This document shows, piece after piece, positions 4,843-64,000 of a stretch of DNA of 64,000 nt. This DNA comes from a bacterium (lineage in GTDB: Bacteria; Patescibacteriota; Dojkabacteria; SC72; WJKH01). Location of the stretch: NCBI GenBank assembly GCA_029547225.1, contig JAKPPS010000032.1:4065-68064 (forward strand), in the 5' to 3' direction. A program made the translations under genes and the position numbers. A model generated the notes under the pieces. The model was given only the letters and a program-made list of their open reading frames with translations. It searched no databases and had not been told where the DNA came from. The first letter of the stretch is position 1; the number at the start of each line of letters is the position of its first letter.

Positions 4843-5171
4843 TAGGACATATTTGAGCGTAAGAATTTTTTGATATTTCGGAAAGAAATAGAAAATATTT
4901 CAAGTAAACCTGTACGCCCAAAAGCCCGTTATACCAAGGTATAGTTTAACCCTAGAGTGTGTGGTTTTTATCTAATAAATGTAGATAGGTTTTCATCTAG
5001 ATTAGAGAAAAATATGATCGTCAAAATCCCTATTTATAAAAGTTTTTATTAATGTCGATAATTTTCTTGCAAAGAGTAACTTAAAACTCCATACTTTCGT
5101 CTAGAGTTCTTCAATATATGGATACCTCAAATAGAGTTTGCATTTAATTTATAAATTGTACATACTAGATT

Positions 5172-27536: not shown

Positions 27537-27607
27537 TTGTACCAATAAGCTAATTGAAACATTGGGATTATTCTACAAATAATTTATATGTTAGTATTCT
27601 GAGCGAG

Positions 27608-36728: not shown

Positions 36729-36852
36729 TTTTGAAAGATAATCTGGCTTTTGGCCTTACGACAGTTTTGAAGAAACCATATCTAATTATTGATCGAGGGA
36801 GATATAGAGGAAAATAGATTAGTAAATATTTTATTTTTTATTAGTGCGAAAA

Positions 36853-39153
36853 ATGGATAATAATAATTATGGACCGATTAAGAGCTTTTCTCAAAGTCAG
36901 GTACCAACAAACTCGGGAAATAAAATTGGTGACAGTGGCAATATTGGTAACGGCTCAGGAAATTGGGGCACTAATGATGATAGTTTCTCTTCAAGCTCGA
37001 ATCCAATATCTAATCAGATTTCCAATGCTCAACAAACTGATGATGCTACTTCTCAGATAGACGAAGATGAAATTTCAAGTATCAATCAAATTTCTGGAAC
37101 AACTGATAGTTCGCTGGATATTAATAGCCTTGATCCGCTAAATGATGATCCAACCAATACACAATATTCTTCTTTGAATAAAACAGATGATGAGAAATTT
37201 GATGCGCTTATCCAGCATTATAATTCAAAAATTAAGGAGCTAGAGCAGAGTGATAGAAAGGATTTAGAGAATAAAGGATTTGGGGATTATCCTCAGCATG
37301 AACAATTAGAAAAAGCCGAAGATTTTAAAACCTCAGGAGATTTGCTTGAAGAAAGTTTGACCGGATCTGATGTGCACTCAAGTTATGACAAATTATTTGA
37401 TGATGCAGGTCAGCCTATTTCTGTGATTGCTAAAGATATAATCGTAGATCAAGTAATTGATGAGCCAGATCAAACGCACTCGACTGGCACAAATATTTCT
37501 TTTTCAAGCGATAATGATTCTGAGCAAACGCACTCAGCTGGCATAAATATTTCTTCTTCAAACGATAATGATATGGGTCCTGATTTGATCTCTTCTGATA
37601 TTTATTCTGGTGGCATTGTTAATAAAGATATCATTTCCTCTGATGCAAATTATGACAGCACAAATGATATTGCCACAGATAAGAGCAATTCTGACGATGA
37701 AGAAAATCTTAGAATACTACAGGAGTTTAAACAATATGAGGATCAAGTTCTTCAAGAAATAAATAGAAAAATGGGTATAAAATCAACGACAGATTTAAGC
37801 AAATATTCAGATTTAGGTTATCGCGGTGATGCTCAATCTGACAATACAAATGTTGTAGAATCTCCAAATATTGATTTCAGTGCAAAGGATATACTTTCAG
37901 CAAATAGAACTCTCGATACAAACGCTGATGTCATTGATTCTTCAATGCAAATTAATACGTCCAATATATCCGAAGGACCAAGCGTTATTTCTAGCAAAAA
38001 GACAGTAGTTGATCCGACTGATTACAATAAGTTAGATTTTTCTCATGGGAGTGGTTCGATGATGCACGATGATTCTTCATTATCCAATTATGTAAATATT
38101 GACGATATAATTAATGATATTAAAAGTATTAAAATCCAAGGTGCAACAAATGTCGCTATCGCTACATTTATGGGGTTGAAGCTTTTTGTAAATCAGTATG
38201 ATAGAGAGGTGCCTTTGGAAGTTTTTATCTCTGATGTGCAAAAGGCAGGTATTTCACTTGCTAATGCTCGACCAAATGAACCTTTAGCAAAAAATGGCGT
38301 CAAATTTATAATAAATAAATTGAATCGTGAAACTGGATTAATAAATGGTATTGATCCTTTGCCTCAAGATTCAAACGAGATATTTAATAAAGTCTCTGAG
38401 ATTATTCAAAATACAGATGATTTATCGCAAAATTCGCTGTACCAAAGTTCAAGCGATGAAATATATCATGTCAAAGACCTAATATCTGCTAAGAAAAGAG
38501 TCCTCGAATTATGTGAAGATTATATTACTCACATTAAGAATGCAAAACAAAAAATAATTGAATATGCAAGTCCAGTATTAAAAAATATAAAATCAATATT
38601 GACCCATTGCCATTCTTCTACTTCGGAGAAGATTATTATCAATCAAAGTAAAAACATCGCTGGTTTCAAGGTTGCCTGTACTGAGACTCGACCACTATTT
38701 CAAGGACGAATCACAGCAAAGAATCTCGCTGATGCGGGACTCGATGTAACATTCTTAACTGATAGTGCTGCTCCTGGATTTATTGCTGGTAAAGGCTCTT
38801 TCCCGATAGACGCAGTATTTATCGGGGCTGATCAGATGACAATCAATGGTGATGCGATTAATAAAGTCGGAAGTTGGTCAATAGCATCTGCAGCAATAGC
38901 GGCTGGTAAACCGGTATATATCGTAACATCTATACTTAAACTTGATTTAACTACTGCTTACAAGCCAGTCGAGATAGAGATGAGAAGCGGTAAAGAGATT
39001 TGGGAAGAAGCTCCAGATGGTGTTACTGTTTACAATCCATCCTTTGAACTTATCGAGAGTAAATACATTACTGGATACTTGACGGAAATAGGAGTTATCT
39101 CACCAAGTGAATTAACTCATTCTGCTCAAAAAACTTACTATTGGTTGACTTAA
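36853..39153 (+). CDS. eIF-2B alpha/beta/delta family protein (ribose-1,5-bisphosphate isomerase-like) with a disordered N-terminal extension of about 415 aa
   Basis: The C-terminal ~350 aa carry 'IKIQGATNVAIA', 'THCHSSTSE' and 'GADQMTINGDAINKVGSW'. The N-terminal part is rich in Ser, Asp and Asn. I prefer the ATG at 36853 over the GTG at 36844. Confidence 0.7.
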   Translation: MDNNNYGPIKSFSQSQVPTNSGNKIGDSGNIGNGSGNWGTNDDSFSSSSNPISNQISNAQQTDDATSQIDEDEISSINQISGTTDSSLDINSLDPLNDDPTNTQYSSLNKTDDEKFDALIQHYNSKIKELEQSDRKDLENKGFGDYPQHEQLEKAEDFKTSGDLLEESLTGSDVHSSYDKLFDDAGQPISVIAKDIIVDQVIDEPDQTHSTGTNISFSSDNDSEQTHSAGINISSSNDNDMGPDLISSDIYSGGIVNKDIISSDANYDSTNDIATDKSNSDDEENLRILQEFKQYEDQVLQEINRKMGIKSTTDLSKYSDLGYRGDAQSDNTNVVESPNIDFSAKDILSANRTLDTNADVIDSSMQINTSNISEGPSVISSKKTVVDPTDYNKLDFSHGSGSMMHDDSSLSNYVNIDDIINDIKSIKIQGATNVAIATFMGLKLFVNQYDREVPLEVFISDVQKAGISLANARPNEPLAKNGVKFIINKLNRETGLINGIDPLPQDSNEIFNKVSEIIQNTDDLSQNSLYQSSSDEIYHVKDLISAKKRVLELCEDYITHIKNAKQKIIEYASPVLKNIKSILTHCHSSTSEKIIINQSKNIAGFKVACTETRPLFQGRITAKNLADAGLDVTFLTDSAAPGFIAGKGSFPIDAVFIGADQMTINGDAINKVGSWSIASAAIAAGKPVYIVTSILKLDLTTAYKPVEIEMRSGKEIWEEAPDGVTVYNPSFELIESKYITGYLTEIGVISPSELTHSAQKTYYWLT
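37471..37578 (+). repeat. Tandem 2 x 54-nt in-frame repeat within the N-terminal extension
   Basis: caaacgcactcgactggcacaaatatttc... is repeated as caaacgcactcagctggcataaatatttc.... It encodes QTHSTGTNISFSSDNDSE / QTHSAGINISSSNDNDMG. Confidence 0.8.
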
Positions 39154-39326
39154 AGATTGAAAATTTCTAAGTATTAGACAACTAGGTAATTTGACAATCT
39201 GAATAAATAGATCGAAATTGATGATTGTAGTTTGCGAAAACCACAGGGAAAATAATAATAAAAATACGAAATGTCTGAAAAGCTCGGATAAATATTATAT
39301 TAATTAATATGTTAAATTTTTTTAGA

Positions 39327-40838
39327 ATGGCATTATACGTAAAAACCAAAAAACTTGATTTCAAAACTGGGGATCCACTTGTTGTACTTTTGCACAGAGC
39401 AGATGCAGAGGAATTAGGAGTAAAAGAAGGACAGAAGGTGATATTCAACTGGCGCGATTTAGAGCTCTATGTTGTAATCAATCTTACAGATACTGAAGTG
39501 AGTAGGGGCGAAGTTGGCTTATATTTTGAGATATGGGAATCTAATGATATCCCTAATAATGAAATGGCCTCAATAAATCTTTTAGAGCGTCCAGATTCAA
39601 TAGAATACATCAAAAGTAAAATACTTGGGCAGCGCTTAAGTCGCGAACAGATCTACGAAATAATGCAAGATATTTCAGATCGTAAAATCCGTGAAGTCGA
39701 AATAGCATATTTTATGGCATGTTTTTTTAACCCTGGTTTTGATGATGAAGAGGTAAGGGATATTGCAGTCGGTATGGCACGAGCTGGAGATATTATTGAT
39801 TTTACAAATATTAATGGTAATGGAAAGCTAGTAGTAGATAAACATTCTATTGGGGGTATTGCTGGCAAAGGTGTCACACCAATATTGGTACCAATTATTG
39901 CAAGTGAGAATCTGATTATCCCAAATACTTCTACTAGGGCTATAACAACACCAGCTGGCACTTCAGATATATTAGAAGTTGTAATGCCAGTATCCTTTAC
40001 TCCTGAAACAGTTAAAGAAGTTGTTAAGAAAACAAATGCTTGTATGGTGTGGGGTGGTTCTATGAAATTAGCTCCAGCTGATGATGTCCTTATATCAGTA
40101 GAAAAAGAATTACATGCTCAAGCATATGGTAAGCTGATTGCAAGTATAGTTGCCAAGAAAATCTCAATGGGCATTACAGATATTGTCGTAGATATACCAT
40201 ATGGAAAGAGTGCGAAGGTAAAAACTCCTGAAGAAGCAGAAATGCTAGGTAGGAAGCTAAAAAAGACATTTCTATCTGTCGGGATAAACTGTGAAACTTT
40301 CCTAAGGTTTGTTACAAGTCCAGATGGGCGAGGTATCGGTCCTGTGTTAGAAATGCGGGATATTCTGAGAGTACTTGAGAGAGATTCTCAAAGGCCTTTA
40401 ACATTGGAGAAGACCGCAGTTGAGATGGCAGGAGTTCTTTTAGAAATGGCTGGCAAGGCTACCAAAGGTAAGGGGCGTGAACTTGCTCAAAAGAAATTAG
40501 ATAATGGTGATGCATTAAAGAAATTCTGGGAGATTGCCACAACTCAAGGCGCAGCGAGTCCGATTGATTCTATAAATCTTGTGCCTGGCGACTATACTCA
40601 TCCTGTCACAATAAACAAAACAGGTAGTATCCGTTTTATCGACAATCACGAGATAGTAAAAATCTGTCGAGCACTTGGTAATCCAACTATCAGAAATGCT
40701 GGTATTTATTTCAAGAGATTTATTGGAGAGAGTGTCAAGGAGGGAGATGTTGTCATGATGATGTATGCGAGTTCTCCAGAACGCTTAGAAATGGGTATTT
40801 CTGAAGTTGATATCAATAAACTATTCGAGATAGTGTAG
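39327..40838 (+). CDS. AMP phosphorylase-like (thymidine phosphorylase family, archaeal type)
   Basis: The N-terminal extra domain 'LYVKTKKLDFKTGDPLVVLLHRADAEELGVKEGQKV' is typical of AMP phosphorylases. 'DKHSIGGIAGKGVTPILVPI' matches the family phosphate-binding motif. The start could also be 39309. Confidence 0.75.
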   Translation: MALYVKTKKLDFKTGDPLVVLLHRADAEELGVKEGQKVIFNWRDLELYVVINLTDTEVSRGEVGLYFEIWESNDIPNNEMASINLLERPDSIEYIKSKILGQRLSREQIYEIMQDISDRKIREVEIAYFMACFFNPGFDDEEVRDIAVGMARAGDIIDFTNINGNGKLVVDKHSIGGIAGKGVTPILVPIIASENLIIPNTSTRAITTPAGTSDILEVVMPVSFTPETVKEVVKKTNACMVWGGSMKLAPADDVLISVEKELHAQAYGKLIASIVAKKISMGITDIVVDIPYGKSAKVKTPEEAEMLGRKLKKTFLSVGINCETFLRFVTSPDGRGIGPVLEMRDILRVLERDSQRPLTLEKTAVEMAGVLLEMAGKATKGKGRELAQKKLDNGDALKKFWEIATTQGAASPIDSINLVPGDYTHPVTINKTGSIRFIDNHEIVKICRALGNPTIRNAGIYFKRFIGESVKEGDVVMMMYASSPERLEMGISEVDINKLFEIV

Positions 40839-40930: not shown

Positions 40931-43105
40931 CTAGTTTTCAGATTTTGTTTCAAGTTTCTTGCTAGTGTCCTTTTCTATATCTTTTCCTGTATTATCGTTA
41001 GAAGTAGTATTTGCCATTAATCTCTTCTTATTGTACTTTCTTATTTGTGATGCAATCAGTGTGATAATAACGATAAAGATTACCAGGGTAACACAAACTG
41101 GAAGTACCACAATAGCAGTTTTACCAAGAGGATTAGTTTTTATCATAAAATCAAGTTTGTCTTGCTCCTGTATTATTTGCAAATCAGAAATAGTTGCAAT
41201 TTGATCAACTGTTTTTAAAGAACCAATTTCCGAAAATTGACTTGCAGGCACGGGATATATAATTATGTGGTAATTATCATAAGCGTTTTCGGCAGTAATA
41301 TTTGCAGAATAAACCATCGCATCAATTGGAGAAGTACTAATACTACTTGATGTATACCAAAGCACATGTTCAAGATCTGGTCCGATATATATTCTTTTTG
41401 TTTCTCCCCATGTCGGATCTACAGTCATCCACCCATAATCTGGAAACCAAACTTGTACCCATTGATGACCCTTACTTTTTTGATTTAGGTCTTCATTATT
41501 ACTCTCAACGGTCTTATTTTCATCACTCTCGTTTGAATTAGTGTTGTTCGTTGTGTCAGAGAGTGTAGCTTCATTTTTTTGTAGAAATTCGGTTTTACTA
41601 ACATCTGTTTGCTGTGTTGAATTGTATACTTCGTTATCAAGAAGGGGATCGTTGCCATACCCAAAAGCAGGTCGTGCAGGTATGCCTTGAGCTCTAAGTA
41701 AGGTGATAAGGCTATCTGAATACTCCATACAGACTGTAGCTTCACCTTCAAGTGCTCGTAAGGCTCCAATGCGTTGATTGAATTGTGAAACCTTATCATA
41801 ACTATAATCAAATTCTTCAACTAAATAATTATAATCAGATATCAATATGTCGTAGATTTTCTCTTTATCCGCCTTCAGAGAATTGGCTAATTGAATAATT
41901 TCTGGATCGGTTGTTTGCCAATATGTATCGGATTCCAAAAACTTAGATAATGTTTGGTTGGATCTGATATCACTTGCAAGATCAGTTAATGTGACCTCAG
42001 TAGTGCTTTTAGTCTCTTGAGTATCTGAAGCTTCTTCGTTTGTACTTGTGGCTTCTTCCTGAATATCCTTATGAATGCTTTGTTTTACATAACCTTCTAT
42101 TGTTATTGTGCTCTCTTTGTTAGCGGGTACCTCCCAGCGTCCGATCAAGTTCCCTTCATCATCATGATATAAAAGTTTGGGCTCGGGAGAAATAGATTTA
42201 ATATATATTTCTTGATTGGTTTCCTCAAATTCTCTTGGAAGAATAATCTCGTAAACATTTGTTGAGAGTAATGGTGAAATATTGCTAATAGATTCAGGTA
42301 TTAAATTATCAGATATTGGTGCTTTTTGTTCTATCTTAAAGTAGGTGTATTGTTCCGTACCAATCTGAACCCAACCCATATTATTCTTAATTGTCTGGTG
42401 ATCAAGAGTGTAAATTCGATGGCCATTTTCAGTGTTTATCTGGATTGAGCTTGGAGAATAATATGAGTGCATTGACTCATTTTCAGGTACTAAAATCTTT
42501 TGAGTATAATTATAGTTTGTTTTGAGACCATTTCCATCAGTTTTACTATCTTCAAGTGTCGGCATTTGTGGGGTATAAATATTGCTTATATTTCCATTAA
42601 TATCTATGAACTGGTGAGATTTGTATCGGATTTCTGCTTCAAAGGGATTATAATTATCAATATTGTAATCCTGTGGAATTAATACTTTTATACCCTGTGG
42701 GGTATTCTCAACTTGATAGGAATTATTTATTTGACCATTAACATACACTTGTAACGAATCCCTGGAAAATGCCATTTCTGAATCGAATAATTCATTCTGA
42801 TATTCAGATGAGATCGGAGTGATATACATTTCTTGCATATACCCAGCAGGGTATAAGTATAATGATGTATTAACTTGTAAGCGGAGTCTTTCCTTTACTT
42901 CAACGTAATCTTGGTTTGGTTGATAATAAATTTCTAGGATGTGGTTGGTCTCGAAATCTGGATCGGAAGCATGAGTATTGGTATTTAGTAGTGCTATATC
43001 TGCAAAGAAAAGTGTTATTATCATTAAAATCGCGAACACTTTTTGTATAAAAGGGGAAATTGTTTTTAAAAGTGCGTTAGTGTTCAGAAATAGATTTTGT
43101 AGCAT
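40931..43105 (-). CDS. Large transglutaminase-like envelope protein with N- and C-terminal TM segments
   Basis: It has the transglutaminase core Cys 'ATVCMEYSDSLITLLRAQGIPAR', His 'KGHQWVQVWF' and Asp 'MTVDPTW'. The C-terminal TM is 'AIVVLPVCVTLVIFIVIITLIA'. Confidence 0.75.
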   Translation of the reverse strand: MLQNLFLNTNALLKTISPFIQKVFAILMIITLFFADIALLNTNTHASDPDFETNHILEIYYQPNQDYVEVKERLRLQVNTSLYLYPAGYMQEMYITPISSEYQNELFDSEMAFSRDSLQVYVNGQINNSYQVENTPQGIKVLIPQDYNIDNYNPFEAEIRYKSHQFIDINGNISNIYTPQMPTLEDSKTDGNGLKTNYNYTQKILVPENESMHSYYSPSSIQINTENGHRIYTLDHQTIKNNMGWVQIGTEQYTYFKIEQKAPISDNLIPESISNISPLLSTNVYEIILPREFEETNQEIYIKSISPEPKLLYHDDEGNLIGRWEVPANKESTITIEGYVKQSIHKDIQEEATSTNEEASDTQETKSTTEVTLTDLASDIRSNQTLSKFLESDTYWQTTDPEIIQLANSLKADKEKIYDILISDYNYLVEEFDYSYDKVSQFNQRIGALRALEGEATVCMEYSDSLITLLRAQGIPARPAFGYGNDPLLDNEVYNSTQQTDVSKTEFLQKNEATLSDTTNNTNSNESDENKTVESNNEDLNQKSKGHQWVQVWFPDYGWMTVDPTWGETKRIYIGPDLEHVLWYTSSSISTSPIDAMVYSANITAENAYDNYHIIIYPVPASQFSEIGSLKTVDQIATISDLQIIQEQDKLDFMIKTNPLGKTAIVVLPVCVTLVIFIVIITLIASQIRKYNKKRLMANTTSNDNTGKDIEKDTSKKLETKSEN
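42688..42707. repeat. Near-consensus 20-bp palindrome TTATACCCTGTGGGGTATTC (site 4)
   Basis: It has the 20-nt frame TTATAC-N8-GTATTC with a CCC..GGGG core. It encodes N-T-P-Q-G-I-K on the minus strand. Confidence 0.55.
42837..42856. repeat. Near-consensus 20-bp palindrome ATATACCCAGCAGGGTATAA (site 5)
   Basis: It has the frame ATATAC-N8-GTATAA with 7-bp perfect arms TATACCC/GGGTATA. It encodes Y-L-Y-P-A-G-Y-M on the minus strand. Confidence 0.65.
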
Positions 43106-49944: not shown

Positions 49945-51279
49945 ATGGCAAATAACAATAGGACTGAAGAAGTGAAGAAGAGTCAGAACGAAATCCTAGA
50001 TATATCAGATAGTAGTACAAATATCCGTGTTACAAATGAAAATGATGACGTAGTCTCTACGCTTGAATATGCGGATAAGAGAGCTCAAGACGCAATTGAA
50101 GAACAAGAGAAGAAGGAGCAAACAATCAAACAAAAGAAAAAACCGACAAAAACACAGTTATTAATTAGGAAAATACTATTAATAGTAGGGGTGATACTAG
50201 TTTTAGTATTGATTGGATTTATAGTAGGTTTGTGGGTATATCCAAAGGGATACGGTTGGCTCAAGGATCATAATTTCGTTAAGGATGATGGTACAAATAC
50301 TGAAAATGCATTTGTCGGATATGATAAATTAAATCGTGAAATCGTAAGTGAGGAGAGTACAATCATTGATGTTGTGAGAAATACGCAGGATAGTGTGGTA
50401 AGTATTGCAGTTGCAGAATTGTCATTGGGACAAGATGGCTCTACAGAATCAAATAGTATTGGCTCAGGTTTTATAGTTGGTAAAGATGGACTGATAGCTA
50501 CAAATCAACATGTAGTTGCACAGTTAAATCAAAATTATGTAGTAGTAACATCTGATGGAAAACAGTTACCTGTAGAAAATATTTTGCGTGATGACGTAAA
50601 CGATATTGCCATAATAAAAGTAAATGCAAGCGATTTAAATGCATTAACGCTCGGCGATTCTGAACAGCTAACTCAAGGACAACTAGTTATTGCTATTGGT
50701 ACGCCACTAGGTGAATATGCCGGAAGTGTAACTACAGGTGTAATCAGCGGTCTAAATAGAAAGGTTGTTGCAGGCAATTATTGGGGTACGGGTGTTAAAA
50801 ATTATGAGAATGTAATACAAACTGATGCAGCAATTAATCCTGGAAATTCGGGAGGCCCTTTGCTAAATTCCAAGGGTGAGGTAGTGGGAGTAAACTTTGC
50901 TACGACTTCTAATGCGGAGAATATTTCTTTCTCAATACCGATAAATATTGTTTCATCGAGGTTAGAAGAGTATCGTAAATATGGAAAGTTTATCAAGCCT
51001 TATCTTGGTATTCAGTATGATATTATATCCGAGCTTGATGCAATTTATTATAAGAATGTTGTAGCAGGAGCATTAGTTCAGCGAGTAGTACCAGGATCTC
51101 CAGCCGAGAAAGCAGGTATTGTTAAAAGTGATATCGTTACCGAGATTAATGGTATAAAGGTCGAAAATTCAGTATCCTATGTGATTCAAAAATTCAAAGT
51201 AGGTGATGAGATAACAATAAAAGTTTGGAGAAATGGTCAAGTTCTTGAACTAAAAACTGTATTGGACGAATCTGATTAG
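49945..51279 (+). CDS. htrA: HtrA/DegP-family serine protease with PDZ domain
   Basis: The catalytic triad context is 'ATNQHVV', 'DIAIIKV' and 'TDAAINPGNSGGPLLN'. The C-terminal PDZ carries 'GSPAEKAGIVKSDIV'. Confidence 0.88.
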   Translation: MANNNRTEEVKKSQNEILDISDSSTNIRVTNENDDVVSTLEYADKRAQDAIEEQEKKEQTIKQKKKPTKTQLLIRKILLIVGVILVLVLIGFIVGLWVYPKGYGWLKDHNFVKDDGTNTENAFVGYDKLNREIVSEESTIIDVVRNTQDSVVSIAVAELSLGQDGSTESNSIGSGFIVGKDGLIATNQHVVAQLNQNYVVVTSDGKQLPVENILRDDVNDIAIIKVNASDLNALTLGDSEQLTQGQLVIAIGTPLGEYAGSVTTGVISGLNRKVVAGNYWGTGVKNYENVIQTDAAINPGNSGGPLLNSKGEVVGVNFATTSNAENISFSIPINIVSSRLEEYRKYGKFIKPYLGIQYDIISELDAIYYKNVVAGALVQRVVPGSPAEKAGIVKSDIVTEINGIKVENSVSYVIQKFKVGDEITIKVWRNGQVLELKTVLDESD

Positions 51280-52397
51280 TGCTCCATGCAATAATCTTCG
51301 AAATATATGCCTTTAATGTTGAATTGCCTCTCTTTTGATAATCCCATTATTGCAGATAAGAGATTGTCTGAATTTCCTACCAAAGCTAATTTGGGCTCAT
51401 GATCTTTTACACTAGGGTCTAGTTTTAAATATACCTCAGGGGGTATATATGGCGGATTTGATATTATAAACACACTACTTTTATCAAATACGCTCTGGGG
51501 TATATTTTTGAGCCAATTACTATTTATAAATTGAACATCTTTACTATTTAGAATCGCTTTTTTGTCGTCCAATATAGGATTCTTTTTTATTGTTTGATAG
51601 TTGTTAGTAGCAATAGATAAAGCTTCTTGAGAAATATCCGTTCCTATAAAGTCAAATAACGCAAACCATTTACTTACTAAATTACGCTTACGGAGATCAT
51701 TGATGAAACCATCTATTTTATTTCTGTTTTTCTTAAAGTATTCATGCAATTCGAAAATATCTCTTTCAGTGATAAGCCTAGTGTTTGTTTTAAAACATAT
51801 ATGTGGTATTTCAAGCTGTTCCGTATATATTCGATCAGAAATATTCTTGATGTTTATTGAACCAGAAATAATACCACTTAAAATCATGTAAACCGAAGTG
51901 ATTATACAACCTGAACCAGTACCGATATCTATTATTGTAATTGTATTAATTGATGATTTATCGGAATCAAGTTTATCTAACAGGTCATTATTATTAAAAA
52001 CATATTCTGAAAAGAAATATTGTAATATCGATAGGGTAGAGTAGTACACTAAGAATTCCGTATCGGTCCTTGGTATAAGAACATTTTTATCAACCTGAAA
52101 AATATACCCACAAAATTCTGCCGAACCTTTGAAATATTCCCAAGGCATATTGTTCTTGAGCTTCTCAATTATCACATCTATCTGAGAAGAAATAAGTGAT
52201 TTAAGGTTTTCGATACTTTTCTTTGCAGGCTTCTTTTTGTTTGGATTAATAAAATTCTCATTACAGGGATTAGCGGAGATTTCGTTAATTACATATTGCA
52301 GTATCTCGTTTGAAATGCGTAAACTATCAGGGTGATTGATATTCTGGAGTTTTCTTTGCAATTGGGGTAGCAAATCGATAAATTCGCTTGGTATCAT
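51276..52397 (-). CDS. prmC: Release-factor glutamine N5-methyltransferase (with a large internal insertion)
   Basis: It has the SAM motif 'IIDIGTGSGCI' and the catalytic motif 'IISNPPYIP'. It lies immediately downstream of prfA on the same strand. Confidence 0.8.
   Translation of the reverse strand: MIPSEFIDLLPQLQRKLQNINHPDSLRISNEILQYVINEISANPCNENFINPNKKKPAKKSIENLKSLISSQIDVIIEKLKNNMPWEYFKGSAEFCGYIFQVDKNVLIPRTDTEFLVYYSTLSILQYFFSEYVFNNNDLLDKLDSDKSSINTITIIDIGTGSGCIITSVYMILSGIISGSINIKNISDRIYTEQLEIPHICFKTNTRLITERDIFELHEYFKKNRNKIDGFINDLRKRNLVSKWFALFDFIGTDISQEALSIATNNYQTIKKNPILDDKKAILNSKDVQFINSNWLKNIPQSVFDKSSVFIISNPPYIPPEVYLKLDPSVKDHEPKLALVGNSDNLLSAIMGLSKERQFNIKGIYFEDYCMEH
51429..51448. repeat. 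20-bp palindrome ATATACCTCAGGGGGTATAT (site 6, inside prmC)
   Basis: It has the ATATAC-N8-GTATAT format and overlaps the codons for P-Y-I-P-P-E-V-Y, directly at the NPPY motif. Confidence 0.8.
51486..51505. repeat. Near-consensus site AAATACGCTCTGGGGTATAT (site 7, inside prmC)
   Basis: It has the frame AAATAC-N8-GTATAT, centred 57 bp from site 6. It encodes N-I-P-Q-S-V-F on the minus strand. Confidence 0.5.
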
Positions 52398-53838: not shown

Positions 53839-54308
53839 GCTCGGCTATTATAGCAGAGCTATATCTAACATGCAAGTGCTTATTTTGTGATATTTAAGGA
53901 TTTGGGATTAATAAAAGTTTTGAAGAGTTTAGGAGAGTCTTGAAAGGCTTTTATGGTTTTTTATGAGTTTTGAAAAAGATTTTTTTGTTGAAATGAAAAC
54001 TATGATTATACTTGTAGTTTATTTCCATAAGTATGCGCGGGCATTAATGGTGCATAAGGGGGGAGTGAATCAGCGAGTGGAGAGTAAGCAAAAACATAAT
54101 GGTAACGTAGTAATCGTAAAGCAATATTGAGGTTGTTGTTGTAACGGAACATGGGATATAATAATTGCTGATTTGATGATAGATTTACTGAGTGAGGTTA
54201 TTATAAAAAATCGAGCGAATATTTAACCGTAATCTTCCGGTCTTTAGTGTTTAGTGTACAGATAGTAAATTCTGAGTTAAAAATAGGATTATAGGTTCGA
54301 ATCATGTG

Positions 54309-54338
54309 TTGACATATACCCCTAGGGGTATATATAAT
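54309..54338 (+). promoter_or_regulatory. Promoter with an embedded perfect 20-bp palindromic operator
   Basis: TTGACA (54309..54314), then ATATACCCCTAGGGGTATAT (54314..54333, a perfect palindrome), then TATAAT (54333..54338), giving an 18-nt spacer. It lies 32 nt upstream of the CsoR-like ATG. Confidence 0.7.
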
Positions 54339-54369
54339 GTATTAAGATAATATAAATATTAAACAGTAT

Positions 54370-54597
54370 ATGGCGAAAAAAGGACCTGCTTCAATATCAG
54401 ATCGATTAAATAGAGTAGAGGGACAGATTAGGGGTATTGAAAAATTAATTGCAGAAGGTGAATCTACAGAAAAAATATTACCTCAGTTACAAGCGATTAT
54501 TTCTGGTATAGAAAATGTTAAGCTCGAAATGATTAAAGAACAAATGAAAAAACAGCTTCTATCTGAATTAGATAAAGTTGTTGATCTATTAAAGTAG
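54370..54597 (+). CDS. CsoR/RcnR/FrmR-family (DUF156) DNA-binding protein lacking all Cys and His
   Basis: 'SDRLNRVEGQIRGIEKLIAEGESTEKILPQLQAIISGIENVKLEMI' aligns by eye to the family core 'RL.RIEGQ.RGI...C.DIL.Q..A...A...V.L.LL..H...C'. The 75-aa sequence contains no C or H. Confidence 0.75.
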   Translation: MAKKGPASISDRLNRVEGQIRGIEKLIAEGESTEKILPQLQAIISGIENVKLEMIKEQMKKQLLSELDKVVDLLK

Positions 54598-54693: not shown

Positions 54694-55818
54694 TTGAATC
54701 GTAACGATAAATCAATTTCCAATGATATCGAATCTACAATTTCTTCTTTATTTATGGGGATTTTCCGAGGTAGTCGAATTGTATTTAATCGCTCTGTTTG
54801 GTTGAATCGCCATAGAGGGAGTTTAGTAATTCCTTCTATTTTATTCATTGCTATTTTTATTGCTATTGTAATATTTGTATTTCAACTATCCTGTATTTTT
54901 TCTTCGGGTTATTGTCAAAATTTATATCATGCTATTTATGATTTAAATAACGATGTCGATGGAAAAACTATCGCGGATGATGTCTTTAATCAAAATACAG
55001 CTAATCTTCAGATCGAGGATTCTGATGAAGTTGATAAAGGTACTGAAAAACGAAGTGGTATTAATAAGGTTAGTGAAGTAGTCGAAAACTGCGGTTTAAA
55101 CATTAGTAATAATGAATCTAAACAGATAGTGGAATGCTTCAATAATTACTTTAACTCAAATATGTATTCAGATGCTTTTTTGTGTATAGAAAGCGCAAAT
55201 ATATATGCAGACATTAATTACGGAGATGAATTTGATATCGATAAGGGCATGGTAATTAGACAGAATGGTGCTAATTGGGATGATGAAAATAATATTGTTA
55301 TTACGGGTCATAGGATTAATTTATCTCAACCAAATCATAAAACTCTACTTAATTTGGATGATGTTGAATCTGGAGATAAGATTCTTGTTTTACGTACACT
55401 TCCAAAGGAAAAGCTGGAAGAAACTGCCTTTGAAAACCAAAAAGTCACTGAAAAAAAATCTGCTAATGAATCTTATGATAATATCCACAATGACGAGGTC
55501 CTAAACATTAACAATACAATAGTTTGTAATGCTGAAGATTTTATTTCACATAGAAATATTAATAATAACGATGACTTAAGTAGCGATGGTAAACAAGCAT
55601 TTATCATTTATGAGTACAGTGTAAATATTATAGATGAGGTACTTCCTCAGGAAGTTCAGATAGAAAGTATAATCAGTCCATATTTATATACTAGTGGGGG
55701 TATATATAATGAAAGAAAGTCTACAATTACAATTTATACTTGTACACCCTTGTGGGTATTTAATCGAAGACTGGTTGTATTTGGTATCTTAGAGAATAAA
55801 TATCATTTGTTGCTCTGA
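54694..55818 (+). CDS. Sortase-family transpeptidase-like protein with an N-terminal TM and a large insertion
   Basis: It has a TM 'LVIPSILFIAIFIAIVIFVF', 'NIVITGHRIN...LLNLDDVESGDKILV', the catalytic Cys context 'ITIYTCTP' and Arg 'NRRLVVFG'. TTG start. Confidence 0.65.
   Translation: MNRNDKSISNDIESTISSLFMGIFRGSRIVFNRSVWLNRHRGSLVIPSILFIAIFIAIVIFVFQLSCIFSSGYCQNLYHAIYDLNNDVDGKTIADDVFNQNTANLQIEDSDEVDKGTEKRSGINKVSEVVENCGLNISNNESKQIVECFNNYFNSNMYSDAFLCIESANIYADINYGDEFDIDKGMVIRQNGANWDDENNIVITGHRINLSQPNHKTLLNLDDVESGDKILVLRTLPKEKLEETAFENQKVTEKKSANESYDNIHNDEVLNINNTIVCNAEDFISHRNINNNDDLSSDGKQAFIIYEYSVNIIDEVLPQEVQIESIISPYLYTSGGIYNERKSTITIYTCTPLWVFNRRLVVFGILENKYHLLL
55686..55705. repeat. 20-bp site ATATACTAGTGGGGGTATAT (site 9, inside the sortase-like gene)
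   Basis: It has the ATATAC-N8-GTATAT format, with the left C-tract replaced. The right side GGGGTATATATAATG is a 15-nt identity with the promoter copy at 54325..54339. Confidence 0.75.
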
Positions 55819-56014: not shown

Positions 56015-56644
56015 ATGAAAATTAGGTATCAAGGTGAGATGTCAGTAAGAATTGATTGTGATGGTACAGTATTTGTCACTGATCCTCAAAGTTTACAGGT
56101 AACAGGTCGAAAGGCTCCAAAAGTTGAGGCAGATGTTGTACTAGTATCCGATACGAAATATTTGGGTGTTTCCGATTATGCTACACAGGCAAATTTAACG
56201 TTAGAATCGTCAAACCGAGAGAAAGTTTTTGAAATTGTAAATTTCGGCGAATATGAAATAGGTGGAATCATGATTCGTAGAAGCCAAAGAAATGGATTTT
56301 ATATTTTAGATCAGGGTTATGTTCGTATAGTCTATGCAGGTTATATCTCTCCAAACTTTGAAGTAGATAAAGCAAAAAATCTTGGTGATGTTGATGTCTT
56401 AATTCTGCCAGTAGGTGATGGAGGCATTTTTCCAAGCAATCCAAAGTTGTCGAAGATAATACAAATAATTGATCCATCTTATCTTATCCCAATCGCATTT
56501 TCTGGCGAAGGTATGCAAGATATTGATACTTTTATTAAAGAATGTGATCTTACTAAGGGTGAAGATATGAAAGAATTAAAGCTTACTGATGCTCCTGAGA
56601 AGGATGAGAAGACACTGAAGGTTATAGTTTTACCAGAAAAATAG
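56015..56644 (+). CDS. MBL-fold (UPF0173-like) protein with degenerate metal-binding motif
   Basis: 'MKIRYQGEMSVRIDCDGTVFVTDP' and 'VDVLILPVGDGGIFPSNPKLSKIIQIIDPSYLIPIAF' resemble UPF0173 metallo-hydrolases from memory. The expected HxHxDH position reads 'VSDTKYLGVSD'. Confidence 0.45.
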   Translation: MKIRYQGEMSVRIDCDGTVFVTDPQSLQVTGRKAPKVEADVVLVSDTKYLGVSDYATQANLTLESSNREKVFEIVNFGEYEIGGIMIRRSQRNGFYILDQGYVRIVYAGYISPNFEVDKAKNLGDVDVLILPVGDGGIFPSNPKLSKIIQIIDPSYLIPIAFSGEGMQDIDTFIKECDLTKGEDMKELKLTDAPEKDEKTLKVIVLPEK

Positions 56645-56958: not shown

Positions 56959-58269
56959 ATGGATAGATTACCTCCTCAGAATATAGAAGCAGAACAGTCA
57001 GTTATTGGTGCAATGCTTTTGGATAAGAATGCAGTTATCGATGTAGCCGAGTTTTTGACTGCAGAACATTTCTATGACCAGAAGAATGCAATCGTTTTTT
57101 CTACGATTATTGAGCTATTTGAAGAGGGTGCTCCAATCGATTTAGTTACTGTTTCTGACCGCCTAAAGAGTAAAGATATGCTAAAAAAGATTGGTGGTAG
57201 GACATATTTAAATGATCTTGTTGCGATGGTTCCTACAAGTGCCCATGTTGAAGAATATGGAAATATTGTTAAAGATAATGCTGTCCGTCGTGGATTGATT
57301 TCGGTTTCCTCAGAGATCAATAAAATCAGTTATCAAGAAAATCTCCCAATAAGGGATATTGTTGATAAATCAGAGCAGATGCTATTTTCTTTAGCTCAGG
57401 AGGGTGTGAGGAGTAAGTTTGTGCCAATAAAAGATTTGCTGAAAGCAGCTTATGAAAGAGCTGAGAAGATTGGTAAGGAAGGTGATATTATGGGAGTATC
57501 CACGGGCTTAAGGGATCTAGATCTTTTACTTGGTGGATTTCAAAAGTCTGATTTGGTTGTTCTTGCTGCAAGGCCTTCAGTCGGTAAAACTGCACTTGCA
57601 CTTGATATGATGAGACACGCAGCAGTTATCGAAAAGAAGAAAGTTGCTTTTTTCTCGCTTGAAATGTCTACCGTTCAGATTATTGACAGGTTGATCGGTA
57701 TGCAGGGCGGTATCCCATTCTGGGAGATCAGAACCGGAAAAATGTCAGACGAGAAATTTATAAAATATAGTGATGCAATGGGTGTTTTGTCTGAATGTGA
57801 GATGTATATTGATGATACACCTGGTCAGAATATTACTGAAATTCGTACAAAAGCTCGTAGGTTAGCTATTGAGCATGGTATAGATATTGTTTTTATCGAC
57901 TATCTACAGCTAGTTGTTGGTCATTCGAAGGATAATCGTGTTCAAGAAGTTGCTGAAATTTCCAGAGGCCTAAAGAACTTAGCTAGAGAGCTTGATGTCC
58001 CAGTAATAGCTTTATCGCAGCTTTCCCGTGCAATCGAACAGAGAGGTACAAGGATGCCTCAACTTAGTGATCTTAGAGAATCGGGTTCTATTGAGCAGGA
58101 TGCTGACGTTGTAATCTTTATCGAAAGAGAGGATTCATATAATCCTGATACTGAGAGGAAAGGTATTGCTGATATTATTGTTGCAAAGCACCGTAATGGT
58201 CCTACGGGCAAAATTGAAGTGGCATTTGTTAAAGATTTGGCGAGCTTCAGAAATCTTTACAAGAAGTAG
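56959..58269 (+). CDS. dnaB: Replicative DNA helicase
   Basis: It has 'PPQNIEAEQSVIGAMLLD', Walker A 'AARPSVGKTALALDM', 'FIDYLQLV' and 'ALSQLSRAIEQR'. Confidence 0.93.
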   Translation: MDRLPPQNIEAEQSVIGAMLLDKNAVIDVAEFLTAEHFYDQKNAIVFSTIIELFEEGAPIDLVTVSDRLKSKDMLKKIGGRTYLNDLVAMVPTSAHVEEYGNIVKDNAVRRGLISVSSEINKISYQENLPIRDIVDKSEQMLFSLAQEGVRSKFVPIKDLLKAAYERAEKIGKEGDIMGVSTGLRDLDLLLGGFQKSDLVVLAARPSVGKTALALDMMRHAAVIEKKKVAFFSLEMSTVQIIDRLIGMQGGIPFWEIRTGKMSDEKFIKYSDAMGVLSECEMYIDDTPGQNITEIRTKARRLAIEHGIDIVFIDYLQLVVGHSKDNRVQEVAEISRGLKNLARELDVPVIALSQLSRAIEQRGTRMPQLSDLRESGSIEQDADVVIFIEREDSYNPDTERKGIADIIVAKHRNGPTGKIEVAFVKDLASFRNLYKK

Positions 58270-60764: not shown

Positions 60765-62081
60765 ATGAAAAGCATCGAAGAAAGTAATAAAAATCTTGAA
60801 TCTGAAAATAATGATACTGCTGTAGAAAGTCCAAATGTAGTGGTTGGAAAACGATTAGATTTAACGGTATTTGAATATATACAGAATCTTGGGCATCAAA
60901 TGCGGTCTAAAAGTGATGATGAAATATACTTGAGCAAAGATCCAAATATCACAATTAATGTAATTAATACTGGGGTAGATATACAATTAGATAACTTAGA
61001 AAAAGTTAGCCGAAGTCTGATTTCAAATAACATTAACAGTATCGTACTGGTCAATAATCTTAAAGAAAAACGAGGTTATAAATTAAGGAAAAATGATGTA
61101 GTAACAATTGATCTGTCGGGTCTTAACAAAATACTGGATCAATCAATAAAAAATAAAAATCTAAATAGTGGGATATTTACAGTTGTCTCAAGAAAAGGTG
61201 ATCTTGATATAGTCTTTGAAGACAAGAACCTACTTGTAATCAACAAAAAAGCTGGTGTGTCGGTACATCCTGGAATCTCAAATCTCGATAATACTTTAGC
61301 CAATTATGTCCGATATTATCTTGAGGATAAATCAGAATTTGATAATCAGGTTGTAAATGGAGGTATCGTCCATCGACTAGATAAATGTACGAGTGGCTTA
61401 ATAATTTATGCAAAAAATCATGAAACACAGATCGCATTGAAACAAATGTTTAAGAGAAGAAAAATAGTAAAGGGGTATATTGCACAAATAGAAGAAAACA
61501 TCTTGAATATAGGCCCCATATACCTAGGGGGGTATATAAAACGTGATAAGGTTGACCGTAGAAGGATGAAGTATTTCCCTTTGACAATTCAGAATCTTGA
61601 AACAGAAAGCAAAGTAGATATATTGAGAGATATTGAATATGTTCCCGTTAATCAGGCGTTTATTAACTCACAATCTGCAGAAATACTTCCTTTATCTGAG
61701 GACAAATCTAATACACGAATGACTCAATATGGCAATGTGAGTATAGATGGGCCAGATGTTCAACAAGTTAACAAGAATGATTTTAAGAGTACCTACAGCC
61801 CTCGAGATATAAAAGATATTGGTAATACATTAAAACTTTGCGAAACACTTATTGAACCAATATCAGGAAATAGATTGTTGGTCTATCCAATTACTGGCAG
61901 AAACCATCAAATAAGGGCTGTCTTACGCGAAATTGGCTATTATATTTTCGGAGACACATTGTATAAGTCCAAAAGGGAAGGGGATATACCAGAAGAAATT
62001 GGTCTGAAGTGTGTCTATCTTCGAGTTGAAGAATATGGTGATGGTTTGGAGATTTCCCTGCCAGACTATAAGACACTCTGA
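60765..62081 (+). CDS. rluD: RluA/RluD-family pseudouridine synthase (with insertions)
   Basis: It has 'LLVINKKAGVSVHPG' and the catalytic motif 'HRLDKCTSGLIIYAKN', with 'RNHQIRAVL' near the C-terminus. Confidence 0.8.
   Translation: MKSIEESNKNLESENNDTAVESPNVVVGKRLDLTVFEYIQNLGHQMRSKSDDEIYLSKDPNITINVINTGVDIQLDNLEKVSRSLISNNINSIVLVNNLKEKRGYKLRKNDVVTIDLSGLNKILDQSIKNKNLNSGIFTVVSRKGDLDIVFEDKNLLVINKKAGVSVHPGISNLDNTLANYVRYYLEDKSEFDNQVVNGGIVHRLDKCTSGLIIYAKNHETQIALKQMFKRRKIVKGYIAQIEENILNIGPIYLGGYIKRDKVDRRRMKYFPLTIQNLETESKVDILRDIEYVPVNQAFINSQSAEILPLSEDKSNTRMTQYGNVSIDGPDVQQVNKNDFKSTYSPRDIKDIGNTLKLCETLIEPISGNRLLVYPITGRNHQIRAVLREIGYYIFGDTLYKSKREGDIPEEIGLKCVYLRVEEYGDGLEISLPDYKTL
61518..61537. repeat. 20-bp site ATATACCTAGGGGGGTATAT (site 11, inside rluD)
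   Basis: It has the ATATAC-N8-GTATAT format and encodes P-I-Y-L-G-G-Y-I-K. Confidence 0.8.
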
Positions 62082-62636: not shown

Positions 62637-64000
62637 ATGCAGCAAATCGAGCTATTAAATCAAAACAGAAAGAGTATGTTAAGTGAGCCAAAGTATAATA
62701 TTCTTTCGTTGTTTAAATCAAATGAAAAGGATAGGACTCGTTCGACTGAAATACGTCATGATAAGTATTCGTCACATGTATTAGATATTAAGAGAGATAT
62801 TATTAATTCAAATACAAGTGAAGCGAAGAGAAATTTTAAGAATAAAAATTTCCGTCGGCATGGTTTGGCAGAGGACAGTATTAAGTATAAGAATGAAAAA
62901 TACTCTTCTTCTCGGTCAAGAGCTTCTGTTGGCTCTTGTAATGCAGAAAGTAAAAAAGATCGTGGAGGAAATAGTGTACTTGGAAAATTGTTTACTGTTC
63001 TTACAAAGATAGTAATTGCTCTGATTGTACTTGCTATCCCAGCATATTATATTTATGTTGGATTTACTCTTTCGGTGATAAATATCGAGGATCCTTTATC
63101 GAATACAGGGACTCTAGTTGCGAGAGATGATGATTTATTTAGGCAAATAATAATAATGACTGATGAAGAAGATACTGAGGTCGTGGGTGTGTATATCTTC
63201 ATTTCAAATCAAGTCTCGGGTGATTCGCTAGTATATTATATACCCCCGTGGGTATATAGTGATGACTACAGTAACACTTTTGAGCAACCTGTTTCTGTGG
63301 GGAACTTGCTTTATATGGCTTCAACGGTTGATCCGGAAAAGAAATATCAATTTGTGATAAATCAAATATCAAGTGTAGTGGGTATGATCTTTGACTCATA
63401 TATATATCTACCAACCGATAAAGCTTCTGAAATCTCTGATCAATGTAAATATGATAGTAGTAAGGGTGCGGAGTATATCGATAAATGTATATCCGGTCTT
63501 ACAAATCCTTTTAATGTACTTGAGAGTCATAAGTTGGACGAACTAATACGATCTCTTCGCTCAAATCTTACTTATAAGCAGATTATGCAGTTAAGAAACC
63601 GTATTGGTGCGATTGATTTTGGAACTGATGGTAATGGTATTATTTCTAATTACAACGGAAATATTATTGATCTTTCAAGTAATAATTATGTAATAGAGAA
63701 TACTGCTCCTGGTGATCAAAACATTATAGTGAGTAAACTTGTAGTTGAATCTATAGACAGTATTATCTCTGAAAACATTGATATTGTACGCTCCAAAAAT
63801 ATCCAAAAAGAGCTTGTTAAAGTAGAAGTTTACAATGGTAGTGGTATACCTAAGTATGCAAGTAAATATTCGAGATATATTAGTAATATGGGGTGTACTG
63901 TAGTGCGTTTTGGCAATGCAGATAAAGAATATGAGCAGACTACAATATATGTTGTTGATCCCGAAAGATTTCAGTATTCCTTGAGTGTGGTTAAAGCTAT
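62637..64000 (+). CDS. Membrane protein with a LytR_C-type C-terminal domain (LCP-like; 3' end outside window)
   Basis: This ORF is not in the supplied track because it runs off the window. ATG at 62637, TM 'LFTVLTKIVIALIVLAIPAYYIYVGF', and 'VKVEVYNGSGIPKYASKYSRYISNMGCTVVRFGNADKEYEQTTIYV' resembles the LytR C-terminal domain. Confidence 0.6.
   Translation, partial: MQQIELLNQNRKSMLSEPKYNILSLFKSNEKDRTRSTEIRHDKYSSHVLDIKRDIINSNTSEAKRNFKNKNFRRHGLAEDSIKYKNEKYSSSRSRASVGSCNAESKKDRGGNSVLGKLFTVLTKIVIALIVLAIPAYYIYVGFTLSVINIEDPLSNTGTLVARDDDLFRQIIIMTDEEDTEVVGVYIFISNQVSGDSLVYYIPPWVYSDDYSNTFEQPVSVGNLLYMASTVDPEKKYQFVINQISSVVGMIFDSYIYLPTDKASEISDQCKYDSSKGAEYIDKCISGLTNPFNVLESHKLDELIRSLRSNLTYKQIMQLRNRIGAIDFGTDGNGIISNYNGNIIDLSSNNYVIENTAPGDQNIIVSKLVVESIDSIISENIDIVRSKNIQKELVKVEVYNGSGIPKYASKYSRYISNMGCTVVRFGNADKEYEQTTIYVVDPERFQYSLSVVKA
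63238..63257. repeat. 20-bp palindrome ATATACCCCCGTGGGTATAT (site 12, inside the LCP-like gene)
   Basis: It has the ATATAC-N8-GTATAT format with 8-bp arms ATATACCC/GGGTATAT. It encodes Y-I-P-P-W-V-Y. Confidence 0.85.

Follow-up and report, generated by a model that had tools for sequence, protein, structure and literature searches.

All characterised members of the CsoR/RcnR/FrmR superfamily of repressors (PF02583) keep at least the cysteine at position X of the ligand site (PMC8643695). In CsoR of Streptomyces lividans, operator binding depends chiefly on R54 and R57 of the RLxR motif and on Q81: binding is undetectable for the R57A and Q81A proteins and about 28-fold weaker for R54A (PMC3902906). 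The Streptomyces CsoR operator follows the consensus ATATACCCCTNAGGGGTATAT, in which the TAC/GTA dyad is essential, and two tetramers bind per duplex (PMC3902906). Here, we analyse a csoR-like gene at 54370–54597 (plus strand) of a 64,000-nucleotide stretch of contig JAKPPS010000032.1 (assembly GCA_029547225.1), hereafter the window, from an uncultured member of the Dojkabacteria (Patescibacteriota). Its 75-residue product has lost the sensing residues of the family, and its promoter contains a palindromic operator whose dyad recurs inside unrelated genes of the window. We consider it probable that the protein is a ligand-less autorepressor, likely of an operon comprising csoR-like, sortase, metallo-β-lactamase (MBL)-fold and dnaB genes, and that in this lineage it also binds selected intragenic sites. 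Our literature searches returned no paper on a cysteine-free CsoR clade or on CsoR in Patescibacteria or Dojkabacteria.

A CsoR-family protein without its sensing residues

The product of the open reading frame (ORF), MAKKGPASISDRLNRVEGQIRGIEKLIAEGESTEKILPQLQAIISGIENVKLEMIKEQMKKQLLSELDKVVDLLK, begins at an ATG start. The initial annotation had placed it in the CsoR family by eye, had counted no cysteine and no histidine, and had assigned threonine and glutamine or glutamate to the ligand positions; each of these observations held up. A search with the Pfam hidden Markov model gave a PF02583 (Trns_repr_metal, DUF156) match of 53.7 bits (E 2.8e-14) over residues 9–67, against a curated cut-off of 22.8 bits. 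Solved structures that HMMER retrieved from the PDB as sequence relatives belong to CsoR, CstR, InrS and FrmR only. A single-chain AlphaFold model built on 26 relatives, with a predicted local distance difference test (pLDDT) score of 93, consists of helices spanning residues 9–28 and 33–74, the second of which merges helices 2 and 3. Foldseek ranks 1–17 in the PDB for this model are all CsoR, CstR, FrmR or InrS proteins.

Both cysteine and histidine are absent from the product (0 and 0). We set the register of the ligand positions by HMMER alignment to the CsoR proteins of S. lividans (4adz) and Geobacillus thermodenitrificans (4m1p), the former alignment being gap-free over residues 8–61. 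The ligand cysteine X is replaced by T33 and the ligand histidine Y by Q58, and Q62 takes the place of the second ligand cysteine Z when the register is extended beyond the alignment. R12, R15 and Q39 align to R54, R57 and Q81 of S. lividans CsoR. Because the X-position cysteine and a linked resistance gene are both absent, the protein is, by sequence, a member of the PF02583 superfamily that falls outside the definition of every sensing subfamily. It appears to be a minimal, sensor-less CsoR/RcnR/FrmR protein that keeps the CsoR DNA-reading apparatus, namely the RLxR motif of helix 1 and the glutamine of helix 2.

The same loss is seen in relatives. An exhaustive phmmer search of 1.84 billion cluster representatives yielded 164 relatives at E values up to 0.001, and 61 of 157 relatives (150 among the matches listed and seven others) have no cysteine. 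Sensor loss is therefore a property of a clade and not a sequencing accident. Cysteine is missing from 102 of the 108 members of the 75-residue Dojkabacteria clade over which we took statistics, and R12, R15, G18, Q19, Q39 and A42 are invariant among them. Across 26 diverse cysteine-free relatives R12, R15, G18, Q19 and A42 are likewise invariant and Q39 nearly so. The ligand positions of the 108 members are variable and non-ligating (X is T, V, L or I; Y is E, Q, G or K; Z is N, S, K or A). Unlike the window protein, the clade as a whole is cysteine-free but not histidine-free: 100 of 108 members carry His14 within an RLHR motif, a position occupied by N14 in the window protein. The clade also shares an N-terminal tail, M-[PA]-K-K-G. 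A 73-residue cysteine-free subclade (MKYPKRIQNRV...) occupies the same syntenic position, directly upstream of Lactamase_B_3–dnaB, on the minus strand in three other Dojkabacteria species (L099 8108–8329, L100 8752–8973 and L101 8971–9192). A scan of a genome collection with the clade alignment returned generic CsoR genes only, through the universal RLxRIEGQ pattern, and among these a Saccharibacteria homologue (L024, described below) alone was useful.

Alternatively, the protein could still be a signal-responsive repressor, in which non-canonical residues sense an unrecognised ligand or partner and thereby derepress a sortase–MBL–dnaB operon and other targets. The family is plastic, responding to copper, nickel/cobalt, persulfide or formaldehyde, and several of its large clusters are uncharacterised (PMC8643695). 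Helix 2 is conserved beyond the needs of DNA contact (S45, L47, S49, K51, L52, E53 and K56), and the widespread His14 and the shared N-terminus point the same way. However, X, Y and Z are neither conserved nor chemically fit for ligation in the 108 members, the window protein itself lacks His14, and no linked transporter, detoxification or metabolic gene hints at a ligand. We regard a signal-responsive repressor as quite improbable. If the protein is a ligand-less autorepressor, then, as the canonical ligand site offers no suitable residue, occupancy of its operator would most likely depend on how much of the protein is present, or on a partner, and not on copper, nickel, persulfide or formaldehyde.

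The operator in the promoter and in coding sequence

The promoter of the csoR-like gene, 56 nucleotides upstream of the start codon, matches the sigma-70 consensus at 12 of 12 positions, with a –35 hexamer TTGACA (54309–54314, plus strand), an 18-nucleotide spacer and a –10 hexamer TATAAT (54333–54338, plus strand). The operator, a perfect 20-bp palindrome (ATATACCCCTAGGGGTATAT, 54314–54333), fills the spacer and takes in one base of each hexamer. Thus, what had been annotated as a textbook promoter with a perfect palindrome in its spacer proved to be exactly that, and the arrangement extends across lineages. The operator equals the Streptomyces CsoR consensus minus one central base. Literature searches for the exact operator sequence found nothing relevant.

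The operator-in-spacer layout recurs in seven further lineages (L003/L001, L006, L087/L089, L103, L104, L105 and L106), where ATACC-N6-GGTAT is flanked by a –35 element resembling TTGAC and a –10 element resembling TATAAT. Their proteins share 96% (L087–L090), 59% (L001–L005 and L105), 51% (L006), about 50–60% (L103 and L104) and 43% (L106) identity with that of the window. Across the lineages the promoter operators share the same arms but differ in their six central bases, with CCTAGG, CCCGGG, CACTAG, TTGTAG, CCTAAG, CCGTGG and TGTGGG all represented. The Saccharibacteria homologue (L024 9973–10240) has kept its sensory cysteine and histidine residues (GKYCIDII ... NHLEEH), and its promoter contains ATACC-N7-GGTAT; the operator is therefore ancestral and sensor loss derived. 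The promoters of the 73-residue subclade (L099, L100 and L101) are AT-rich, of the form TTGATT/TTGCTT ... TATACT, and have no G/C-tract dyad. The promoter operator is a general trait of the 75-residue clade, whereas the intragenic scatter described below is an elaboration restricted to one lineage.

We propose that the protein uses its RLxR/Gln surface to bind the dyad ATATACC-N6-GGTATAT, in which TAC/GTA inverted repeats enclose a G/C tract. Bound within the –35/–10 spacer, it would exclude RNA polymerase and close its own very strong promoter. Autorepression of this kind would hold the protein at a constant level and make its expression homeostatic.

The window contains nine exact copies of ATACC-N6-GGTAT, where 0.12 are expected from 5-mer frequencies. 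The initial annotation had described the operator as scattered through the chromosome, which the window bears out for this lineage, the scatter being lineage-restricted. No other spacing from 0 to 12 yields more than one match for the same half-sites. Allowing one mismatch gives 15 sites (1.58 expected), allowing up to three mismatches to the full 20-mer gives six (0.00 expected), and the extended form ATATACC-N6-GGTATAT is present in seven of the nine. We also scanned the window for all combinations of a 5-mer, a gap of 0–10 and the reverse complement of the 5-mer. The operator dyad family was the top inverted repeat and the sole outlier (ATACC-N6, 9 vs 0.12 expected; TACCC-N4, 7 vs 0.02). 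Half-sites outside dyads occur at about the expected frequency, the enrichment being confined to the full dyad at spacing 6.

Eight of the nine exact sites are intragenic; they fall in unrelated gene families and use all three reading frames. On the left of the window, ATATACCCCCGGGGGTATAT (18665–18684) encodes YTPGGI in the RNase HIII gene, ATATACCCCAGTGGGTATAT (21270–21289) encodes IPTGVY around residue 40 of an unknown 448-residue gene on the minus strand, and ATATACCCCTGGGGGTATAT (27979–27998) again encodes YTPGGI, in a gene for a radical S-adenosylmethionine (SAM) enzyme resembling the activase of pyruvate formate-lyase (PFL). A transglutaminase-like gene on the minus strand holds two sites 149 bp apart, with the cores ATACCCTGTGGGGTAT (42688–42707, NTPQGI) and ATACCCAGCAGGGTAT (42837–42856, LYPAGY). 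In prmC, on the minus strand, ATATACCTCAGGGGGTATAT (51429–51448) encodes NPPY-IPPEVY. The RluD-like pseudouridine synthase gene contains ATATACCTAGGGGGGTATAT (61518–61537, IYLGGY), which differs from its orthologues by substitution and not by insertion. Finally, ATATACCCCCGTGGGTATAT (63238–63257) encodes YIPPWVY in a LytR_C gene that runs off the window end, and its orthologues have YIPxWV in other codons. Two one-mismatch sites are exact in the sister species: ATACGCTCTGGGGTAT (51488–51503) in prmC, 57 bp from the 51429 site (exact at L087 6778), and ATACTAGTGGGGGTAT (55688–55703) in the sortase gene (exact at the orthologous position in L089, 1819). The sortase gene holds a second one-mismatch site at 55744.

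Dyads or near-dyads are paired 56–57 bp apart in prmC (51431/51488) and in the sortase gene (55688/55744), and the same pairing is found in the sister species (L087 6721/6778 and L089 1819/1875). Such pairs may point to cooperative binding or wrapping.

Could the intragenic copies have arisen by chance, from a protein motif that the hosts have in common or from paralogy? Two pairs of sites do encode like peptides (YTPGGI twice, and IPTGVY with IPPWVY). Against this, the host genes are unrelated (RNase HIII, radical SAM, PrmC, RluD, LytR_C and transglutaminase-like), all three frames are used, and shuffling synonymous codons within genes gave a mean of 2.36 sites, two of which were not shuffled, with 0 of 2000 shuffles reaching nine. 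Of the 15 peptide positions in long ORFs of the window that are able to encode the dyad, eight carry it. The corresponding fractions are 3/6 in L103, 2/5 in L087, 1/1 in L089 and 0/3 in four operator-less species. A chance or paralogous origin is practically negligible as an explanation. The codons that the sites use are rare in the window, with CCC making up 9% of proline, GGG 11% of glycine and ACC 10% of threonine codons.

The bases that our search left free carry a further signal. Among the 30 intragenic half-sites, A stands at position –2 in 22 and T at position –1 in 23, both positions lying outside the pattern, and C fills the three inner positions in 22, 18 and 14 of 30, in a genome of 35% GC with about 17% C. 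The search-unconstrained positions hence reproduce the operator consensus. Maintenance at the codon level argues directly, on the side of sequence, for selection or drive acting on the intragenic sites.

Several other origins were tried and rejected. The sites are not parts of a longer repeat or mobile element, as the flanks beyond about 20 bp are random-like (30–43 identities in 116 positions, 32 expected). Nor were they inserted: RluD, LytR_C and PrmC, whose sites were the three that could be aligned to orthologues, align gap-free through the sites to dyad-less orthologues. The intragenic dyads therefore arose by substitution, that is, by recoding of nearly compatible peptides such as Y-I-P-x-[EGW]-V-Y and Y-T-P-G-G-I. 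Internal promoters show no general pattern, with weak promoter-like surroundings only at the sortase near-site (TTTATA-16-TATAAT) and at 42839. In three alignments of site-bearing proteins to PDB entries, the sites lie in poorly conserved stretches. A scan of viral contigs for the dyad gave scattered single matches and no dense cluster.

Comparison with relatives shows how the sites are kept. In strain contigs L091–L098, which are 96.7–97.8% identical to the window, the four sites in common have intact arms and, in their centres, four synonymous changes. Within the species this amounts to 4 of 24 central positions changed against 0 of 56 arm positions, at a background divergence of about 3%. 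On these small numbers, the dyad centre may be unusually free or fast-evolving. The sister species, at 75–83% DNA identity, retains the promoter site and the prmC site. Of 14 synonymous third positions in the site arms, 12 are identical between the two species, whose background identity is 54% (P = 0.015). L103, whose release factor 1 (RF1) is 64% identical, has four sites in 17.7 kb (0.02 expected), in the promoter, an ATP-binding cassette ATPase gene, the sortase gene and prmC. The orthologous prmC site is hence common to three species (the window, L087/L088 and L103) and is absent from L099–L102. Where the dyad is present, prmC reads TAT ATA CCC (CCT or TCA) GAG GTA, whereas the four operator-less species have TAT ATT CC(A/T) followed by unrelated codons. 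A metagenome scan with C-terminal halves yielded one locus, L104 (47% GC), whose 8.7 kb hold the promoter site plus a single intragenic one. No site was found in 76 kb of four species that have a dyad-less csoR-like promoter or no gene at the locus. From these sequences, the scatter is confined to a sub-lineage comprising the window species, its sister species, L103 and, with one site, L104.

Every site can fold into a short hairpin containing G and C, whichever strand is transcribed, and palindromes acting as 7–8-bp hairpins on mRNA stability or translation would be an RNA-level alternative. Against this, it is the arm sequence itself (ATATACC/GGTATAT) and not just its pairing that is conserved; the centre varies, no compensatory changes are seen, and transcription probably starts downstream of the promoter copy. 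Action on RNA is highly improbable.

A more serious contender holds that the protein is a local autorepressor only, and that the dyads are recognised by another factor or are made by a sequence-biased process such as uptake-signal-like drive or biased repair or recombination. Uptake sequences of Haemophilus and Neisseria lie in tolerant protein stretches, use several frames and turn over between species. The dyads behave alike: they are distributed in proportion to the coding share, the protein stretches that hold them are poorly conserved, they occur in all frames and they turn over from species to species. Also in favour of this contender, L105 and L106 possess the protein and the promoter operator without intragenic sites in 20 kb each. 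On the other hand, the sites are strict, symmetric 7+7 dyads with a fixed 6-bp spacing and no enrichment of half-sites, which fits a symmetric oligomer and not a monomeric receptor. Where the sequence is unconstrained they match the promoter operator as well as the CsoR consensus, the 76 kb from species lacking a dyad promoter or the gene are free of them, their density of about one per 7 kb is well below that of uptake sequences, and no candidate for a second binder was identified. Another factor or a drive process is, in our judgement, an unlikely explanation.

A number of observations weigh against an autorepressor that also binds the intragenic sites. With 86% of the DNA coding, eight coding sites out of nine is simply proportional, unlike an ordinary promoter regulon. 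L105 and L106 lack any further exact dyad in their 20 kb each although their prmC, RluD and LytR_C orthologues are present, with one-mismatch sites in LytR_C (L105 16154) and RluD (L106 17518); the protein alone is therefore insufficient for scatter, which may have another driver. On a single-gene RF1 tree, scatter-bearing and scatter-free species do not fall into clearly distinct clades, and the correlation between gene and motif comes down to few independent events. His14 (100/108) and the M-[PA]-K-K-G tail could be an unrecognised sensory site. Finally, a hairpin after the csoR-like gene of L103, described below, suggests that co-transcription with dnaB is not assured.

We nevertheless favour a ligand-less autorepressor that has gained intragenic sites. 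In the window lineage, further dyads have become fixed in unrelated genes at about one per 7–8 kb. From their maintenance at the codon level and across species, and from the copying of the operator at unconstrained positions, we infer that the same protein occupies the intragenic dyads and thus has a genome-wide, site-specific role in architectural bridging, titration or roadblocking. The initial annotation had suggested that the protein was repurposed for DNA binding, perhaps on a global scale, or else responds to some unknown ligand, a reading that the evidence favours and that still stands as a proposal.

This can be carried further, to a possible if doubtful model. The ligand-less CsoR-family tetramer might be a chromosome-wide, site-specific binder in one Dojkabacteria lineage, with dyads selected into coding sequence. 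It would act either as a bridging or architectural protein through the two DNA-binding faces of a D2 tetramer, or as a titration device, in which chromosomal sites sequester the autoregulated repressor and thereby make expression of its own operon, ending in the replicative helicase gene dnaB, track DNA content.

The csoR-like gene neighbourhood

The csoR-like gene is followed on the plus strand by a sortase-like gene (54694–55818), for which the annotated identity is borne out by a PF04203 match and which may start at ATG 54754, as called in the strain contigs. Next come a Lactamase_B_3 (MBL-fold) gene (56015–56644), a downstream partner conserved in all Dojkabacteria loci examined, and dnaB (56959–58269), the last conserved member of the putative operon. 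Upstream lie the genes for ribosomal protein L31, RF1 and PrmC, and the window neighbours also include a zinc-ribbon protein. Eight species share the order L31–RF1–PrmC on the minus strand followed by csoR-like–(sortase)–Lactamase_B_3–dnaB on the plus strand. The 73-residue subclade has no sortase gene here, and its csoR-like gene abuts the MBL-fold gene. The conserved downstream partners are accordingly the MBL-fold gene and dnaB and not only sortase.

Intergenic gaps from the csoR-like gene to dnaB are mostly 6–100 bp in relatives and 97–315 bp in the window. Between 55780 and 57000 the window has no terminator-like site, and such promoter-like matches as occur are weak. The csoR-like stop codon of L103 is separated from the sortase gene by a terminator-like hairpin, CCTGACT-TTTATA-GTCAGG with a T run (about 4890–5020, minus strand); no equivalent was seen in the window. 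Co-transcription from the csoR-like gene through dnaB is plausible on this basis, and the control exerted at the csoR-like promoter would then probably extend to the sortase, MBL-fold and dnaB genes.

As the initial annotation had noted, no copper, nickel or formaldehyde resistance gene is adjacent. The ORFs that we scanned, namely the neighbours, the site-bearing genes and the largest window ORFs rather than every ORF, include no copper, nickel/cobalt, sulfide or formaldehyde gene. The cognate genes copA/copZ, rcnA, frmA and cst were not found among the large window ORFs, which encode Mfd, DnaX, an acetyl-CoA synthetase-like protein, PFL, CCA-adding enzyme, RNase J, and IF-2B-like and AMP-phosphorylase-like proteins.

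Some further features of these loci were recorded. A 55-residue ORF (53963–54130, plus strand) between rpmE and the csoR-like promoter is a gene call in several strain contigs and has no family match. In L001 (47–1498, minus strand), rpmE (L31) and prfA (RF1) form a single open 483-residue ORF, maybe through fusion or a lost stop codon. Owing to large lineage-specific insertions or extensions, several window proteins far exceed their orthologues in length: RluD (60765–62081) has 438 residues against about 310, PrmC (51276–52397) 373 against 270–290, sortase (54694–55818) 374 against 150–230 and LytR_C (62637 to the window end) 487 against about 400. Elsewhere, an IF-2B-like gene (ribose-1,5-bisphosphate-isomerase-like, 769 residues with a long N-terminal extension) adjoins the AMP-phosphorylase-like gene at 36844–40838, the PFL gene stands together with that of its activase at 25128–28468, and an 802-residue ORF (28858–31266) has no Pfam match.

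Comparison with known systems

A large and conserved cysteine-free clade that keeps the DNA-reading residues and an autoregulatory operator would show the CsoR scaffold working as a plain, inducer-free DNA binder. The surprising part is the inscription of the operator into genes at the codon level. Rare codons and shifts of amino acid have placed it in unrelated genes, and at an orthologous position it is conserved across species despite largely randomised synonymous sites. Intragenic sites would thus be selected or driven in a reduced genome, a kind presumed to encode few regulators. If the protein binds the dyads, it offers a tractable entry to chromosome organisation or global regulation in Patescibacteria, and maybe a link to control of the replicative helicase operon. 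A 75-residue protein and a 20-bp site lend themselves to simple in vitro tests.

The closest counterpart is the Cu(I)-sensing CsoR of S. lividans, with which the window protein shares family, fold, the RLxR motif and the helix-2 glutamine, and whose operator consensus ATATACCCCTNAGGGGTATAT is almost the window palindrome. As in the window, a site precedes the csoR gene itself in S. lividans (PMC3902906). Whereas that protein has a Cys-His-Cys site and 133 residues, the window protein has T33/Q58/Q62 and 75 residues. The spacing differs as well, TAC-N9-GTA there and TAC-N8-GTA in the window. Unlike the S. lividans system, the window has no nearby copZA or other resistance gene among the scanned ORFs, and its cognate sites are multiplied in coding regions.

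CstR, FrmR, RcnR and InrS are alike in their helical fold, in G/C-tract operators with flanking inverted repeats and in repression by promoter occlusion (PMC8643695). All of them keep the X cysteine, in the signatures x-C-x-C (CstR), P-C-H-x (FrmR), H-C-H-H (RcnR) and H-C-H-C (InrS), to which CsoR adds x-C-H-C (PMC8643695); the Dojkabacteria clade has none. The sox regulator TTHA1953 of Thermus thermophilus is reminiscent of our protein in that the CsoR family has been redeployed to a multi-promoter regulon not concerned with metal efflux, with TAC/GTA palindromes under strict spacing. However, it uses two cysteines for redox control, and its sites are promoter sites without a G/C tract (PMC10318464).

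By analogy only, the dyads also resemble the uptake signal sequences (USS) and DNA uptake sequences (DUS) of Pasteurellaceae and Neisseriaceae, in that they sit where proteins tolerate them, occupy more than one frame and turn over between species. USS and DUS are short motifs enriched genome-wide, at roughly one per kb. In contrast, the window motif is strictly a symmetric dyad with the very sequence of a repressor operator, at a roughly ten-fold lower density. Its link to the csoR-like promoter is without counterpart in those systems, and the window falls outside their density and single-motif patterns.

ParB with parS, Noc with its binding sites (NBS), SlmA with its binding sites (SBS) and MatP with matS form a second group of analogues. 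Their palindromes have about 14–16 specified bp, are present in many copies per chromosome, are largely intragenic and are maintained against coding constraints. The likeness, again one of analogy, lies in dispersed, largely intragenic sites maintained by selection, of which the window has eight intragenic ones in 64 kb. There is no homology to these proteins, the density in the window is higher, at about one per 7 kb, and nothing in the sequence points to spreading, occlusion or segregation functions. Overall, the distribution of the dyads appears to resemble that of chromosome-organiser or titration sites more than that of a promoter regulon.

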